A stretch of DNA of 64,000 nt from Octopus vulgaris (lineage: Eukaryota): the NCBI GenBank assembly GCA_951406725.2, contig OX597833.1:66030001-66094000 (forward strand), given 5' to 3'. A program made the position numbers and the translations under genes. Shown piece after piece: positions 4,101-62,946 of this stretch. Numbering within the stretch: the stretch's first letter is position 1; each line of letters starts with the position of its first letter. A model generated the notes under the pieces. It was given only the letters and a program-made list of their open reading frames with translations, ran no database searches and had not been told where the DNA came from.

Positions 4101-5707
4101 TGTTTCTTTATTAGCCACACAGGGCTGCACACAGATAGAACAAATTACAAGGTAGAGCTTTTCTTTTGAAGGTTTAAGAAAAAAAAAAAAAAAAAGAAAA
4201 GAAAAGGAAGGGGGAGTTTCGATCAAAAGGGATCGTAAAAGGAGAGAAAGAGGACAAAAAAAAGGGGGTTTAAAAAAAAAGGGGGAGGAAAAAAAATTGA
4301 TCAATAGGGATCGTTATCACAGAAATGTCAATATGAAGTGTAAAGGGGAGGACAGGTGAGGTTTACCCGTGCAAAGAAAAGCCTACGGAAAAGACCACGG
4401 TAACCTCGGTCAATGATGTCACATTTTATATTTCTTTTTTTTTTTTTTGCAAATAAGCAACTCTCTGTTTTCGATTTCTGGGTTCATAGGACTATGCTCA
4501 AGGTGGCTTCGTCATTCATACGTGCCATTCTTGCTACATTCACCCATCTTTTTTAAAACATTCGCTAGACAAAACTTGCCTCTCTACTCTCACTTTCCTT
4601 TTCAAGTGGTACTTGAAGAAGTTGATGAGAGATTGACCAGAGAGGAAAGTGTTTGTCTCCAATCCTTTCAGACGCGTCCACCAGATACATTCTTTCGCCA
4701 TAGCCACAAGGATGATGAAAATAGCTCTTCCTTCCCGTTTGAAGGAAGGAGGCGTGACAATATTGACGATAGACTCAGCTGATAAACCGACTCGTCCCAC
4801 ACGTGACAGCAGTTGTTCGACATAAGCCCACAGGTCGGAAATTGTTGGACACTGAACGAGTGCGTGCAGAACGGTTTCGTCGCTCTGACCGCATCTCGGG
4901 CAGGTCGGCCCCGTGTTTCTCGAGCCGTGTCTGTAGAGCTTATCCCGAACGGGTAGCGCTTCTCGGTAGCACTGCCAGGCCAGGGATCTCTGGAAGTTGT
5001 CCATGGGCCCTGGCCCGAAAGTCGTCCTGAACAGGCGGGTCAGGTACTCCTCGTCGACGTCCAGGTTCGCCCCGAGCTCGTCGTCGTACCTCCCCTCCAC
5101 TAAACCCCTATAGAATGCTTTGGTTGTGTTGAAGTCACTTAAGGTCGACCCAGGACGGCAGAGTTGCTTGAGAGCAACGCGACACTCGCGGTGCCATTCG
5201 CCCTTCCTCGGCCTCTTTTTGATCCACGACTGCAGTTCGGTCATGGAGACGAGCTGCGGGAAAGCGTGCCTCACAAACGGCGACCACACCTGTTCACCGT
5301 CGTCTACATAGAGCCAGAGATGCCGCAGTCTCAGCGCGTGTCTGCGCATCATCAACCACGGCATGCCCAGCCCTCCTTTTAACGGGTGTTGACAGCAAAT
5401 GGATCGCCTGACCATCGGGACGCATCCTTTCCACAAGAAGCGAAAGAGGATGCGTTGTAGTTTGGTGATGGTAGGGTCGGGACAAGGTACGACGGTCAGG
5501 CGGTAGTAGATGACGGACGCGATGTACGTGTTCGCCACCTCCGCTCGACCTTTTAGGGACAGTTTCCTCTCGGCCCATTGCCGGGCGAGAGTGACCACCC
5601 TACTCGTTATCTCGTTCCAGTTCTTCTCCACTTGGAGGTCCGGACCAAACCAGACCCCGAGCAACTCAACCGGGCCGTCGGTCCAGCGTCCCACGACGGA
5701 GGCGCTG
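4101..5707 (-). mobile_element. 5'-truncated non-LTR retrotransposon (L1/Tx1 clade), 3' part of ORF2 plus 3' UTR, inserted in a (TAGA)n array
   Basis: GC-richer island containing ORF 4540..5694. The 3' UTR ends ...GCTAATAAAGAAACA, and (TAGA)n arrays abut both ends (about 3998-4100 and 5708-5910). Confidence 0.9.
4484..5707 (-). pseudogene. LINE ORF2 C-terminal fragment (RT thumb region and zf-RVT CCHC finger)
   Basis: Motifs LLGVWFG, W..RKLSLKGR, FRFLWKG, GGLGMP, LPVRDKL and CPRC...ETVLHALVQC are typical of L1/Tx1 ORF2. A probable frameshift lies in an A-run near 4550, and the alternative frame RWVNVARM...IVL* ends at 4484. Confidence 0.85.
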
Positions 5708-10162: not shown

Positions 10163-10351
10163 CTATTTCTTTTACTACCCACAAGGGGGGGGGGCTAAAC
10201 ACAGAGAGGACAAACAAGGACAGACAAACGGATTAAGTCGATTACATCGACCCCAGTGCGTAACTGGTACTTATTTAATCGACCCCGAAAGAATGAAAGG
10301 CAAAGTCGACTTCGGCAGAATTTCAACTCAGAACGTAACAGCAGACGAAAT
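10163..10351 (-). mobile_element. SINE-A, 5'-truncated, adjoining a SINE-B head (10063-10160)
   Basis: Core and tail type 1. The 5' end lies at ATTTCGTCTGC, within a few nt of the trimer junction point. Confidence 0.85.
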
Positions 10352-10387
10352 GTGTGTATATACATACATACATATATATATATATAT

Positions 10388-16822: not shown

Positions 16823-16860
16823 TATTTCTTTATTACCCACAAGGGGCTAAACACAGAGGG
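16823..16860 (-). mobile_element. Tail-only SINE-A insertion
   Basis: Reverse complement of CCCTCTGTGTTTAGCCCCTTGTGGGTAATAAAGAAATA, flanked by 11-bp TSD TTTAATATACT (16812-16822 and 16863-16873). Confidence 0.8.
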
Positions 16861-25216: not shown

Positions 25217-25445
25217 AGGTGACGAGCTGGCAGAAGCGTTAGCACGCCGGGTGAAATGCCTTGTGGTATTTCGCCCGCCGCTACGTTCTGCGTTCAAATT
25301 CCGCCGAGGTCGAATTTGCCTTTCATCCTTTCGGGGTCGATTAAATAAGTACCAGTTACGCACTGGGGTCGATGTAATTGACTTAATCCCTTTTATCTGT
25401 CCTTGTTTGTCCCCTCTATGTTTAGCCCCTTGCGAGCAATAAATA
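25217..25445 (+). mobile_element. SINE-A monomer (tail type 1)
   Basis: Near-identical to 62716-62946. Confidence 0.88.
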
Positions 25446-33551: not shown

Positions 33552-34640
33552 GTATCAGATCATCCCAGAAGTTCTGTTCGATTTTACCTTTGTCAAAATT
33601 GAATGAAATTTAATAGTATTTTAAAATGTCTGATGGAATTCAAATTTATTTTTATGCATTTGTGTACATATAAACTAATTAAATATTATTTTACAGAATA
33701 ATAGAATTAAAATTTCTTTGATTAAATCCCTTTCTAACATGAAAGTATCCAAAGAGCATTTAAGGCACATAATGCTTTATGAGTTCAAAAAAGGAAACTC
33801 TGCAGCCGAAGTGACTCGAAACATACACTCAGCTTATGGGAAAGAATGCTTGAATGAAAGAACTTGCAGAAGATGGTTTGCAAAATTCAGAAGTGGAGAT
33901 TTCAGCCTTGAAGACGAAGATCGAACAGGACGTCCAGTTGAGTTTGATGATAAGCTCCTTGAGGCATTACTTAAAGTAAGTCCTGCATTATCAGTTGAAG
34001 AATTGGCAATAAAGCTTAGTTCTAACCATACAACTGTTCATCGTCATCTTCATCAACTTGGAAAGGTTCCAAAACTTGGAAAATGGGTGCCTCATGAATT
34101 GTTCGAAAGTAACCTCAAATCTGAGTTGATATCTGCTCTTCTCTCCATTCTCACAAACTCATTTCACCCTTTTTGGGTAGACTTGTGACTGGTGATGAAA
34201 AATGGATCTTCTATCGAAAGGTTAAATGTCGTAAACAGTGGCTTGGTGAAAGGGAAAAAGCGCAACCACAATCAAGAAGGTTCTTCTCTCTATCTGGTGG
34301 GATTGCAAAGGAGTAATTCACTTTGAATTGTTACCACTTATGCAACAATCAATGCTCAAGTCCACTGTCAGCAATTAGAGCGTTTGAACGAAGCTTTGAA
34401 GAAAAAAAGACCCTCTTTTGTGAAACGAAAAGGAGTGGTGTTTCATCAGGACAATGCGCGACCCCAAACTGCAAAGATCATATCAGAGAAGATCGAAGAG
34501 CTTGGTTGAAAAAAATTTCTCATCCACCTTATTCTCCCGACCTTGCTCCTTCAGACAACCATTTGTTTCGTAGTTTACAGAATCATTTGGGGGACATAAC
34601 TTTCGCAAGCCGGGAGGAGGTCCAGACTGACAATTCAGCT
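33552..34640 (+). mobile_element. Mariner (Mos1-like, DD34D) element, degenerate and lacking its right end
   Basis: Transposase remnants described in the next feature. The 5' boundary is approximate. Confidence 0.85.
33739..34640 (+). pseudogene. Mariner transposase pseudogene (frameshifts and deletions)
   Basis: MKVSKEHLRHIMLYEF, RRWFAKFRSGDFSLED..RTGRP, WVPHEL, VTGDEKW (about 34184), FHQDNA (34441) and HPPYSPDLAPSD.HLF occur in different frames. Confidence 0.92.
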
Positions 34641-35587
34641 TTTATTCAAGACTGGTTCAACCGATGCCAATGTTATAAGCAAAGCAGGATCGAACTCAGA
34701 ACCGCATTTGATACGAAGCTAACATACGACCACACACCCATACCTACACCCTTTAATCAAAGTAGACGGGAAGCAAAACAATGACAATAACAACAACAAC
34801 AATATAAGCAAGACATCAGTGAATGGTCTACATACTGCAATTATATATGTGAATGGTAAAAAGCGGTGTCCTTTGTCTATTGTTCCGTATGAAATTGAGT
34901 GCCGTTCGTATGAGCTGTCTGAAATGACCGGATTAAATATTCATGTATTGATATGTAAATGTCATATTTCAAACGAACTGATTATCTATATACTTTAAAG
35001 GGCTCGACAGTGTTCAAATATGTATTGTGTGTGTGTGTGTATGTGTATGTGTGGGAGGCGTATGTGTATGTGTGTGTGTGCGTGTGTGTGTGTAAATATA
35101 TATGTATGTACATGTTTATGTATATATGTATATAGATAGATGTAAAGAAAGATAAATAGATGTACGTGCATGTGATGCACGTGCCCATACATATATACGT
35201 GTGTATATATAGTATATGTATATGTGCATGTATATATATATACATACATACATACATACGTATGTGTACACATATATATACATACATATATGTGTGCTCA
35301 TATATATTGAGGGATGTACATGTATATATATATATATACATATGTATGTATGTATGTATGTATGTATGTGTGAGTACAGATATATTCACATATCGATATA
35401 TGAACATGAAAGCATTATATATGTGTATGTGTGTAAAGTGATTTCTATACATATACATGTATATATATATATGTTTGTATGTACTCACACATACACATAT
35501 ATATATTCATATCTACAAATGTATACATATAAATATACATACACACACATATGTGCATATATATATATAAATATACATATATATATG

Positions 35588-36258: not shown

Positions 36259-36570
36259 CTAAGATGGCGAACTGGCAGGATCGTTAGCAAAGCATTTTTT
36301 TCCGGCGTCCTAAAGATTCTGCCAGCTCGCCGCCATCTTTAGTTCCTCATATTCTTTTCTACTCTAGGCACAAGGCCCGAAATTTTGAAGGGAGGGGCTA
36401 GTCGATTAGATCGACCCCAGTACGTAACTGGTACTTATTTCATCGTTCCCCAGGAAGGCTGAAAGACAAAGTCGACCTCGACGGAATTTGAACTCAGAAC
36501 GTAAAGACGGACGAAATGCAGCTAAGCATTTTGTCCGCCGTCCTAACGATTCTGACAGCTCGCCGCCATC
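36259..36570 (-). mobile_element. SINE-A (tail type 2, about 36350-36568) preceded by inverted head fragments
   Basis: Full minus copy. 36259-36341 contains two head fragments in opposite orientation. Confidence 0.8.
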
Positions 36571-38503: not shown

Positions 38504-39029
38504 CGGTGAAACAGTGGTGTTTATTACGCAATAGGAAGATTCTTCGAAACACTTCAAAAGTACTGAGAATAATTCGTGTAGATTGGCACCAAAAATGGTG
38601 TATGACAATTATCTGGCTACAATAATTTGGGATGCGTCCAGATATCATAATGAAAAACGAGAATGGAATTTGACGCCATCTCATAGATCGTCTCCGTCTA
38701 TTCTCACACAAGAAAAGACCATAACAAGATGAAGATAAGATCCCCGAGTATCTTACAAAATACAATAGGAGAGTAAAGATTGGTAGCAATGACAATCAGT
38801 GAGTTATGAATGATATAAAAGAAGTTATGAAAAGAAAGTTTTTTTTTAGAAAATAGTCTTACGGAAATCAAAGCAATGAGCGAGCATCCGCGTAGTCACT
38901 AAACCTCCGAGAAGTAGCAACCAAATCTCCCTCAAATAACATCGAATCTTCTTTAGAATGAACATTGACGTGTTCGTTTTAATGGGATTCTTGTTTCCCT
39001 GCAAAGATGGCAAATAAAGACCACGTTTA

Positions 39030-39657
39030 AGGCGGCGAGCTGGCAGAATCGTTAGCACGCCGGGCGAAGTGCGTAGCTGTATTTCGTCTGCCGTTACGTT
39101 CTGAGTTTAAATTCTGCCGAGGTCGACTTTGCCTTTCATCCTTTCGAGGTCGATAAATTAAGTACCAGTTACGCACTGGGGTCGATAAATTAAGTACCAC
39201 TTGCGCACTGAGGTCGATGTAATCGGCTTAATCCATTTGTCTGTCCTTGTTTGTCCCCTCTGTGTTTAGCCCCTTGTGGGCAGTAAAGAAATAGGTATTT
39301 CGTCTGCCGCTACGTTCTGAGTTCAAATTCCGCCGAGGTCGACTTTGCCTTTCATCCTTTCGGGGTCGATTAAATAAGTACCAGTTACGCACTGGGGTCG
39401 ATATAATCGACTTAATCCGTTTGTCTGTCATTGTTTGTCCTCTCTGTGTTTAGCCCCTTGTGTAGTAAAGAAATAGGTATTTCGTCTGCTGCTACGTTCT
39501 GATTTCAAATTCCGCCGAGGTCGAATTTGCCTTTCATCCTTTCAGGGTCGATTAAATAAGTACCAGTTACGCACTGGGGTCGATAAATTATCGACATAAT
39601 ATGTTTGTCCTTGTTTGTCCCCTCTGTGTGTAGCCCCTTGTGGACAGTAAAGAAATA
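39030..39657 (+). mobile_element. SINE-A trimer (one full unit and two 5'-truncated units)
   Basis: tRNA-like head (TGGCAGAATCG and GAGTTCAAATTC boxes), Meta-like core GTCGACTTTGCCTTTCATCCTTTCGGGGTCGA, and 16-bp TSD AAATAAAGACCACGTT (39012-39027 and 39658-39673). Confidence 0.9.
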
Positions 39658-40232
39658 AAATAAAGACCACGTTATTTAGCCTACTTATTTTCAAGGATAT
39701 AAGATGTTTCTGTGAAAGATTTGGTTGTTAAGCCTTGACAGGTTAGTCACGGTAGGATTGTTTCTGACTCTGTATCTGTCCGATCAGTGAGTTCTGTGAA
39801 ATCATGTCCTACCATTTAAGAAAAGGACACATTTAGCAATATAGACCTAGATACACAAGGCAGGTGGCATAGTCACAACTGGAACAACTTTAGTTCCTGG
39901 AACTACTCAGCCAGAACTGACCTAGGGTTAAACAGCAACAATACAGAAGCCTATATGCGGTCGCCCATCATGCTAGAAATTGAAATGAGTCTCCCTCAAA
40001 TAACATCCCATCTTAAAAATAGACACGTTGCATAAGGGAATCCTTGTTTCCTAGCACATACGGAAAGACAGAAAGGTCATGGTTGGACCGCTTTTCATTA
40101 TATATCTATAGGTCTATTTGATTAGAGAATTCTCAGAAACAATCTTTTGCCCTTTACAAAGAGGAGGTATTTAACAATATTGCCCTAGATGTAAAAAATA
40201 AAGGCAGGATCGCCACAAGTGGAACATCTTTG

Positions 40233-47877: not shown

Positions 47878-48562
47878 AATTCTTTATTGCCCACAAGAGG
47901 CAATAAAAAGGGACAAGCAAGGACAGACAAAGGGACTTATTTAATAGACCCCGAAAGAATGAAAAGAATGAACTCAGAACGTAGTGACAAGGAAATACCA
48001 CTAAGCATTTCGTCCAGCGTGTTAACGATTCTGCCAGCTCACCGCCTGAAATTAACAACTAATTATTTTAGGACTTATTAAGGCAGTGAGGTGGCAGAGT
48101 ATCATTACCGCAAAGCAGCGAGCTGGCAGAAACGTTAGCCTGCCGGGCGAAATGCTTAGTAGTATTTCGTCTGCCGCTACGTTCTGAGTTCAAATTCCAC
48201 CGAGGTCGACTTTGCCTTTCGTGCTTTCGTAGGTCGATAAATTAAGTACCAGTTGCGTACTTGGATCGATCATATCGACTGGCCCCCTCCCCTAAAATTT
48301 CGGACCTTGTGCCTAGAGTAAAAAGGAAGAGAATATTATTACGGCACCGGGCAGAATGCGTAGCGACATTTCGTCTGTCCTTACGTTCTGAGTTCAAATT
48401 CTGCCGAAGTCGACTTTACCACCGTTCATCATTTCGGGTTCGATAAAACAAATACCAGTTGAGCACAGGGGAGTAGTGCGGGGGGGGGGGGTCAATGTAA
48501 TCGGCTTAACCCCCACCTCCTTCAAAATTAATGGCCTTGAGCCAAAATTCGAAACCAATATT
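47878..48562. mobile_element. Cluster of three SINE-A copies (47878-48046 minus; 48117-48322 and 48345-48562 plus)
   Basis: Head and core motifs recognisable in each copy. Both tail types are present. Confidence 0.78.
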
Positions 48563-48786
48563 AGGCCTTATATAAAACGTTTTACGTGAGAAATAGAGAG
48601 AAACTAGAGCTCGAACAATTCATCTGATCCCACAGATGATTCACCAAAATTGCGAGAGAAGTCTTTACGACTCATCGCTGACAGAGACATCTCTCTCTCT
48701 TTACTCTGTTTTCGTCTTTTGTCTTTACTCAGAGAACAGTTGAATATCTGAAGGATTTTTGACAATCATTCTGAATTCTTCTTACC

Positions 48787-49387
48787 TATTTCTTTACTAC
48801 CCACAAGGGGCTAAACACAGAGGGTACAAACAAGGACAGACAAACGGATTAAGTCGATTACATCGACCCCAGTGCGTAACTGCTACTTATTTAATCGATC
48901 CCGAAAGGATGAAAGGCAAAGTCGACCTCGGCGGAATTTGAACTCAAAACGTAAAGGCAGACGAAATACCTATTTCTTTACTACCCACAAGGGGCTTAAC
49001 ACAGAAAGGACAAACAAGGACAGACAAATGGATTAAGTCGATTACATCGACCCCAGTGCGTAACTGGTACTTATTTAATCGATCCCGAAAGGATGAAAGG
49101 CTAAGTCGACCTCGGCGGAATTTGAACTCAGAACGTAACGGCAGACGAAATACCTATTTCGTTACTACCCACAAGGGGCTAAACACAGAGGGGACAAACA
49201 AGGACAGACAAACGAATAAAGTCGATTACATCGATCCCAGTGCGTAACTGGTACTTAATTTATCGACCCCGAACGGATGAAAGGCAAAGTCGACCTCGGC
49301 GGAATTTGAACTCAGAACGTAACGGCAGACGAAATACCGCTAAGCATTTCGCCCGGTGTGCTAACGTTTCTGCCAGCTCTCCGCCTT
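48787..49387 (-). mobile_element. SINE-A trimer (one full unit and two 5'-truncated units)
   Basis: Same unit as 39030-39657, with 15-bp TSD TGAATTCTTCTTACC (48772-48786 and 49388-49402). Confidence 0.9.
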
Positions 49388-50032
49388 TGAATTCTTCTTA
49401 CCCTCATATTTTCACTCTTAGGTGCAATCACTCCCTTTTTTCTTTTTTTTTCTTTTTTGCTGTTCACACACATACATACACTTGGGCTTTTGGATTAAGT
49501 AACAGTGAAGTCTTTCGATGTTCCATGAATAACAAATTGATCTGCATATTTCATCGCTGTTTTTCCATCCTATTTTATTGACTGTGTAAATTTTTTCCTG
49601 ATGCTGGAGCGTCAATAAAATAAATAAATAAAACAATTCTGTTACATATTTTATATCTCACTTAACTTTGATATTTCGTACATATTTTCCTTTAAATAAT
49701 TTGCCTTATTTTTCCAATGCCGAAAAGAACGTGTGAATTTACGTAAGAAATCAGAAACGATTACGCTTTTCTACAAAAAAATTCTAGCAGAGTAAAACGT
49801 GTTTTGCAGGGTTCTTCGTTGTACACGGGAAAAGGTCGTACATTAAAGCATCATTTAGTTGTTACTTAAGCAGAATAAGATTCTTTTAAAGCAGAAAGTC
49901 AGAAACAATCGACTTGGAATTTCTGGTTGCCGCGAAAGACTTTTATGATTAAATTCTGCAGACATGCCATGAATCAGAATTGAGAAGTTTGCAGTTAAGA
50001 TTTACCAAAGAATTAGAAAGAAAGTAATGAGT

Positions 50033-62715: not shown

Positions 62716-62946
62716 GACGGCGAGCTGGCAGAATCGTTAGCACACCGGGCGAAATGCGTAGCCTTATTTCGCCTGCCGTTACGTTCTAAGTTCAAATTCC
62801 GTCGAGGTCGACTTTGCCTTTCATCCTTTCGGGGTCGATAAATTGAGTACCAGTTACGCACTGGGGTCGATGTAATCGAATTAATCCGTTTGTCTGTCCT
62901 TGTTTGTCCCCTCTATGTTTAGCCCCCGGTGGGCAATAAAGAAATA
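62716..62946 (+). mobile_element. SINE-A full monomer (tail type 1)
   Basis: Complete head, core and tail, with 17-bp TSD GATATATCTAACACGTT (62687-62703 and 62947-62963). Confidence 0.9.

Follow-up and report, generated by a model that had tools for sequence, protein, structure and literature searches.

Head-bearing SINE trimers enclosed by single TSDs and joined at a common position: a case for movement of the whole array

How do three copies of a short element come to lie head to tail within one pair of target repeats, the second and the third beginning at the same internal point? The question is raised by array A (39031-39657, + strand) in a 64-kb window, which here means the whole stretch of DNA analysed. 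As claimed in an earlier, sequence-only reading of this DNA, array A is a trimer of one head-bearing unit followed by two head-less units, and the whole lies within an exact 16-bp repeat (TSD). The features are collected in Table 1. Position 1 of the SINE is the first G of GGCGG, and in this numbering the restart is position 48. Both internal units open with GGTATTTCG, immediately 3' of AAGAAATA. An exact match of 16 bp has a chance of approximately 6e-10 per pair of places, and the TSD of array A has no further occurrence on the + strand of the window. Its right copy opens with five letters identical to the final five of the tail. The body of unit 1 contains an internal 32-bp tandem duplication (39146-39218), absent from the other units.

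Table 1. Features of the SINE arrays and of related copies in the window
Feature	Coordinates	Strand	Remarks
Array A, left TSD copy	39012..39027	+	16 bp, exact repeat
Array A, unit 1	39031..39293	+	263 nt; tRNA-like head, body, tail
Array A, unit 1 head	39031-39077	+	SINE positions 1-47
A-box-like stretch, array A unit 1	about 39041-39056	+	judged by eye against the consensus
Head hairpin region, array A unit 1	39061-39090	+	
B-box-like stretch, array A unit 1	about 39105-39115	+	judged by eye against the consensus
Array A, unit 2	39294..39475	+	182 nt, head-less, restart at position 48
Array A, unit 3	39476..39657	+	182 nt, head-less, restart at position 48
Array A, right TSD copy	39658..39673	+	16 bp, exact repeat
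Array B, 5'-side TSD copy	49388..49402	-	15 bp
Array B, unit 1	49155..49385	-	231 nt, head hairpin intact
Array B, unit 2	48971..49154	-	184 nt, restart at position 48
Array B, unit 3	48787..48970	-	184 nt, restart at position 48
Array B, 3'-side TSD copy	48772..48786	-	15 bp, opens with GGTA
Monomer, same family	62717..62946	+	older tail type, 17-bp TSD
Monomer, same family	25220..25445	+	older tail type, 13-bp TSD
Head-less single body	10163..10352	-	match from near position 50, beside microsatellite; tail, then GGTA

The repeated element is a SINE, that is, a short, interspersed, multicopy monomer of 231 nt, to which at least 497,828 contigs of sequencing run X1 align. Copies of the family have TSDs of 16, 15, 17 and 13 bp, and some are 5'-truncated, as after target-primed reverse transcription. 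The A- and B-box-like stretches were identified by eye against the consensus, and their spacing is approximately 19 nt wider than in tRNA. ARAGORN found no tRNA genes in the window, and Rfam gave no matches in the window at the gathering score. Within the window, the array tail has no match outside the SINE copies apart from a weak 42-nt match at 4103-4144.

The window is animal-like, rich in microsatellites, with a GC content of about 34%. Three tRNA-derived SINEs of octopus, OK, OR1 and OR2, are said to have been described by Ohshima and Okada in 1994. The repeat and its microsatellite-rich surroundings may resemble those of an octopus, and the SINE may be akin to these three. The literature searched, which left most subscription papers outside, held no account of this element or of SINE multimers in cephalopods, and none of four sequence motifs of the SINE occurred in it. 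Membership in the MetaSINEs, which carry a 66-bp Meta domain after the tRNA head, was considered but found no support by eye: the element appears unlike BivaMeta-SINE1 and BivaMD-SINE1 as given in the available part of PMC4824008.

The junction motif had no matches in a metagenome contig collection, and a body motif had none in a viral and none in a genome contig collection. A shorter body motif matched two metagenome contigs, one by a chance 20-mer (L001) and the other in a different SINE-like sequence (L002). In the latter, at 1050-1269, a different tRNA-like head precedes 51 nt that have 88% identity with the central domain of our SINE; thus this domain is common to a distant SINE.

Array B (49385-48787, - strand) is a second trimer. 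It is an independent insertion, its flanks and TSD being unrelated to those of array A. Its unit 1 is preceded by AA at 49386-49387, and read alignments stop there. All six units of the two arrays have the same tail end base as the 62.7-kb monomer. An nhmmer search with an array B unit as the query produced 26 rows in the window, including an older sister family. Eleven rows reach the tail end of the present family; in four of these the tail is followed by the position-48 restart, and the remaining seven are terminal. Most of the other rows belong to the older sister family, which has the head and the central domain in common with the present one and a different tail. No TSD was found on looking for one at the head-less single body.

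The window contains some irregular copies as well. Tandem pairs of the older sister family were observed at 41267-40854 (- strand) and 48116-48512 (+ strand). At 36266-36567 (- strand), a copy of the older family precedes a second occurrence of its own 5' flank, another head, which stops close to position 47-48, and a fragment of a head in inverted orientation. A 37-nt copy at 16823-16860 (- strand) consists of the family tail only, with an 11-bp flanking repeat seen by eye, and suggests that the tail alone is enough for insertion.

One possibility is that the arrays are nested, separate copies having inserted successively into position 47/48 of earlier ones. Sequential tandem insertion has been reported for SINEU-3 (PMC4494074), head-to-tail multimers of B2 and Dip are common (PMC8466645), both according to the available text of these papers, and a single event of this kind could have been the founder of the junction. 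However, the extra heads and internal TSD copies expected of nesting are absent from both arrays, the sole TSD encloses each array as a whole, and no stray fragment of positions 1-47 was observed upstream. Thus nesting is largely excluded at arrays A and B, and as a general explanation we consider it highly improbable.

The junction was described in the sequence-only reading as fixed. To see how widely it recurs, reads and contigs were aligned to unit 1 of array B together with 12 bases of the next unit (49143-49402). Four of 24 sequencing runs were aligned: X1 and X11, both DNA contigs, and X23 and X24, both RNA; runs X15-X22, having a small word share or none, were left out. X1 is from organism A, the one that matches the window best, with a word share of 0.91. 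X1 may come from the window's own sample and is a wider count, not independent support. X11 comprises DNA contigs of a related organism, E, and X23 and X24 are raw RNA reads of the same organism E.

At least 1027 contigs of X1 stop fitting exactly at position 48 (49338) and go on as tail. Six loose ends are listed for X1, and this is one of them. Among the 15 joints listed, eight fit the position-48 junction, two restart at position 15, and five have other forms. The junction seen in array A thus recurs in array B and in contigs of X1, and a second junction also exists. Among the joints listed, the position-48 joint is represented by 10 contigs in X1 and one in X11, and the position-15 joint by two and six contigs, respectively. 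The ratio of summed depth in the junction bin to that in the head bin is 0.154 in X1 versus 0.014 in X11, making the position-48 junction about ten times rarer, relative to heads, in organism E, and the tail to head ratio is 1.67 versus 0.37; all these are rough summed contig depths from partial counts and not copy numbers. The difference in junction depth is as expected of a subfamily burst. One variant of the read table, at 49258, was left out, since contigs that are short and have two changes near each other probably align less often than they should. An opposite-strand joint of position 64 to the 5' end was also observed, in at least 22 contigs of X1 and at least 19 of X11.

In the RNA of organism E the position-15 joint is the main one (1117 reads in X23 and 612 in X24), a dominance that a few expressed loci could yield. 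The position-48 joint is represented by 61 and 49 reads, respectively. Neither starts nor ends pile up in X23 and X24, and both strands are covered equally, hence these reads are uninformative on Pol III products or circles. Moreover, as the junction is present in the DNA of organism E, genomic junctions explain the RNA junction reads, which thus cannot demonstrate a circle.

What is special about position 48? The sequence-only reading placed the junction in the hairpin CGAAATGC-TTAGCG-GTATTTCG of the head. This hairpin is not present in the head of array A, which is mutated (CGAAATGC is absent from 39012-39673), but it does match the head at 49.35 kb, in array B. In this intact head positions 31-43 pair with positions 48-60, forming a 13-bp hairpin with a 4-nt loop (44-47). 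Pairing in the 3' arm begins with G48, the restart base, so the proposed restart at the 3' edge of the loop holds for array B. It had further been proposed that the tail can replace the lost 5' arm. The complementarity is real, the final six nucleotides of the tail being the exact complement of positions 50-55, and a 6-bp arm across the junction is given by only seven of 199 possible restarts (44-50). However, position 48 itself is unremarkable both by folding energy (rank 128 of 199) and by the number of cross-junction pairs (rank 97 of 199).

The ends of a head-less unit can pair with each other, with a probability of 0.6-0.84 in unit 2 of array B. The best linear folds of array B unit 3 and array A unit 2 lack this pairing, and its probability in the head-bearing monomer is 0. 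The second junction, with the restart at position 15 and a 217-nt unit, has no such pairing at all, so the hairpin is not needed for a fixed junction, nor is its loop the only possible break site. A cut by the tRNA-splicing machinery was also considered and rejected: in the usual tRNA layout, the canonical intron ends would fall near 40/41 and 59/60 and not at 47/48. The junction likely arose once, and the tail end, by pairing with positions 50-55 of a head-less RNA, likely helped it to do so. The predicted folds support the structural idea of the sequence-only reading as a way in which the junction might originally have been made.

Alternatively, the junction might be made anew at each insertion. 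The LINE reverse transcriptase would pause, or meet a break, at the head hairpin and switch, either in cis or in trans, onto a SINE RNA at its 3' end; it would do so repeatedly and finish on a full-length RNA. The end pairing of the head-less unit agrees with this, and LINE-1 ORF2p yields concatemers by template jumping in vitro (PMC10830420, available part). However, as just described, the pairing is inconsistent among units, is lacking in the monomer, and does not accompany the position-15 junction. Besides, the other 5'-truncated copies in the window begin at scattered positions (22, 28, 39, 55, 80, 81 and 194).

A circular template is another of the three mechanisms considered in the sequence-only reading. 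By analogy with retrozymes, an RNA would be cut in the hairpin loop, its 184-nt remainder ligated, and the circle copied by a rolling enzyme, which would then move to a full-length RNA to add the head. The restart at the loop edge, the exact end-to-start fusion with no shared letters, and the GGTA after the final unit are what such a circle would produce, and the unit length lies in the range of animal retrozymes, 150-300 nt (PMC7761336, available part). However, there is no Rfam match around array B even at E up to 5, in addition to the negative search of the window, and no hammerhead core in either array. The circular folds are ordinary, no better than those of shuffled sequences (z of +1.08, -0.40 and +1.03), with 56-61% of bases paired. 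Finally, units 2 and 3 of each array have different letters in alignment column 234, and those of array A also in column 264; both columns are sites of family-level variation. Thus the circle is disfavoured, and we regard it as improbable.

The tail and the restart have no bases of direct homology at the breakpoint. Therefore unequal crossing-over or homologous switching would not pick position 48 independently at many loci. This bears on the possibility that the arrays grew in place, a monomer being inserted and its last 184 nt later duplicated at the DNA level, as a seed of a SINE-derived satellite. There is a precedent in the SINE-derived satellites (sSats) of squamates (PMC10702118, available part), and the 32-bp duplication in array A shows that local events of this type do occur here. 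However, a homology-free breakpoint produced by such duplication should differ between loci, yet it is common to arrays A and B and at least 1027 contigs.

The sequence-only reading had expected that, after local tandem duplication, the units of one array would resemble each other more than those of different arrays, and had named this, or variable junctions across the genome, as refuting its view. Neither was seen here. Over about 180 columns the mean number of differences is 12.8 within and 13.2 between arrays. A linked pair of changes, at positions 125 and 128, occurs in both units 1 and in the 62.7-kb monomer and in none of the four internal units. A T at position 195 is found in both units 2 and in no unit 1 or unit 3; this T accounts for 28% of depth in X1 versus 4% in X11. 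Thus at two sites unit 1 of each array is unlike the units downstream of it and like unit 1 of the other array, contrary to growth in place. The same observations argue against switching at each insertion, since random draws from an RNA pool would be unlikely to favour in both units 2 a variant at about 28% of X1 depth, and the two changes common to the units 1 are missing from all internal units.

Other variants are shared by array and not by rank, namely those in alignment columns 68, 195 and 264 for array A and 123 for array B. These array-specific changes, common to units 2 and 3, agree both with switching at each insertion, as does the mosaic of family-level variants within arrays, and with growth in place. 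A single source could not explain them without conversion or re-copying. A tree of nine units has no supported inner branches out of six. In constrained trees, pairing by position costs 0.0 log-likelihood units, and grouping by array costs 11.0 and 6.9; the array clades have p-AU values of 0.14 and 0.21, so that neither is rejected, and each array is monophyletic in only 2% of bootstrap trees. To judge from the two arrays compared, the arrays appear to be mosaics leaning towards unit position. Duplication of unit 1 in place and rolling on one template are both disfavoured, as likeness within arrays does not exceed that between arrays and some variants track position; neither gives a simple fit, although the tree test rejects neither. 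We assign growth in place little likelihood. Of the three mechanisms named in the sequence-only reading, a multimeric source fits best, because variants mark unit 1 and unit 2 in both arrays.

The 3' ends provide a further clue. The terminal units of array B and of the head-less single body at 10.2-10.4 kb continue as GGTA, the four bases that open another unit. This continuation is seen in two of the three terminal units that have the young type of tail and in two of seven terminal tails overall; its chance is approximately 3e-5 for two of three and 1.4e-4 for two of six, in a test picked after seeing the data. Since terminal units continue in this way, the template RNAs probably extended into one more junction. 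An RNA ending in tail-GGUA(UUU) would also match a cDNA end at positions 48-54, as would suit switching at each insertion. With the evidence on both sides, we think that mechanism rather unlikely. In several LINEs priming is aided by pairing of the target with the 3' end of the RNA (PMC6007223, available part).

Runs of four T are absent from array A and occur once in array B, from a private change. Each unit has a single TATTT; it lies at position 50, two bases behind the junction. In mammalian assays this sequence halted Pol III in 42-50% of cases (PMC8466645, available part). By analogy, the TATTT of the junction may be a leaky Pol III terminator, perhaps setting the RNA ends and the number of units. 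It lies at position 50 of the head as well, where it would be expected to cost part of the transcripts, and TGTTT stretches occur in the body.

Taking all this together, we lean towards the following reading. The SINE is a young subfamily of a tRNA-headed family, composed of one head-bearing unit and head-less units of 182-184 nt joined at position 48; its arrays move whole, and the junction is inherited from multimeric source copies and not remade at each site. Pol III would initiate at the lone head and transcribe through the successive units, which have almost no T4 run. The leaky terminator would then yield RNAs ending in tail-GGUA(UUU) after one, two or three units. The LINE enzyme would prime on this end, aided by a few bases matching the target, and insert the entire array at once, leaving a single TSD. 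As such a ladder of terminators can only shorten arrays, some regrowth is needed. It would likely involve re-priming of the cDNA end (positions 48-54) on an RNA end of the same letters; unequal exchange at the source loci is an alternative.

This reading can be extended. The founding junction would itself be the Pol III terminator of the element, the RNAs would end in the letters that open the next unit, and the LINE enzyme would re-prime exactly there, time after time. The result would be a self-renewing SINE concatemer. Its 184-nt body would serve as a giant terminal repeat of the 3' end, acquired in the course of retrotransposition through template switching or a ribozyme-free circle, and this would have driven a lineage-specific burst. 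We offer this extension tentatively and consider it possible but doubtful.

Arrays of similar design are known, as far as the available parts of the cited papers describe them. Among published forms, those closest to ours are the TSD1-(SINE)n-TSD1 arrays found in the blood clam Scapharca broughtonii (PMC11481361) and the squamate sSats. The blood clam arrays, like ours, have one TSD, a full tRNA head first, and later units cut at a common point of the head. However, their first and inner units also lose the tail, and recombination is suggested by the authors (PMC11481361), whereas in the present arrays every unit has a full tail and the homology-free breakpoint is common to independent loci. 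The squamate sSats (PMC10702118) share with our arrays a unit shorter than the SINE and a longer, head-bearing leading unit. Their boundaries are common across loci within a taxon, and some units extend from the B box to the tail. They are regarded as DNA-level satellites, in many cases long, homogenised and subtelomeric (PMC10702118), with four or more monomers in the middle and homogenisation in the longer loci as defining features, and the words "TSD" and "reverse transcri" do not occur in the text of that paper. The present arrays, in contrast, are short, dispersed and bounded by TSDs. Homogenisation of the sSat type was not seen in the three units of each of the two arrays, the distances within and between arrays being equal.

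Complex SINEs, dimeric or trimeric, and the multimers of B2 and Dip (PMC3531059, PMC8466645) resemble the present arrays in that the multimer can be transcribed and inserted as one unit. However, in the available descriptions they have a fixed number of units or full-length units, whereas our arrays repeat a head-less unit and coexist with TSD-bounded monomers. Animal non-LTR retrozymes (PMC7761336, available part), too, are tandem units of 150-300 nt apparently spread via RNA. The present arrays, in contrast, lack a hammerhead ribozyme and a highly paired circle, and they are led by a head of the Pol III type. Thus the element works as a multimeric SINE and not as a retrozyme.

SINE arrays with a head and truncated units are therefore already known from bivalves and squamates, where they are ascribed to DNA recombination. 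Here, the TSDs, the common homology-free breakpoint and the 3' ends entering the next unit point to spread via RNA. If this is true, retrotransposition is directly linked to the birth of 180-bp tandem repeats. An abundant family of this kind would supply thousands of natural insertions for gauging how a non-LTR reverse transcriptase switches templates in vivo. It would be miscounted by repeat annotation that assumes monomers.

Other mobile elements were observed in the same window. A LINE-like reading frame with a zf-RVT domain (4540-5700, - strand; E 3.8e-8) is a possible partner of the SINE, and short frames related to it are located at about 3.3-4.3 kb and 23.4-23.8 kb. A broken mariner-type transposase with a Mos1 HTH domain lies at 33679-34784 on the + strand (E 5.6e-24).
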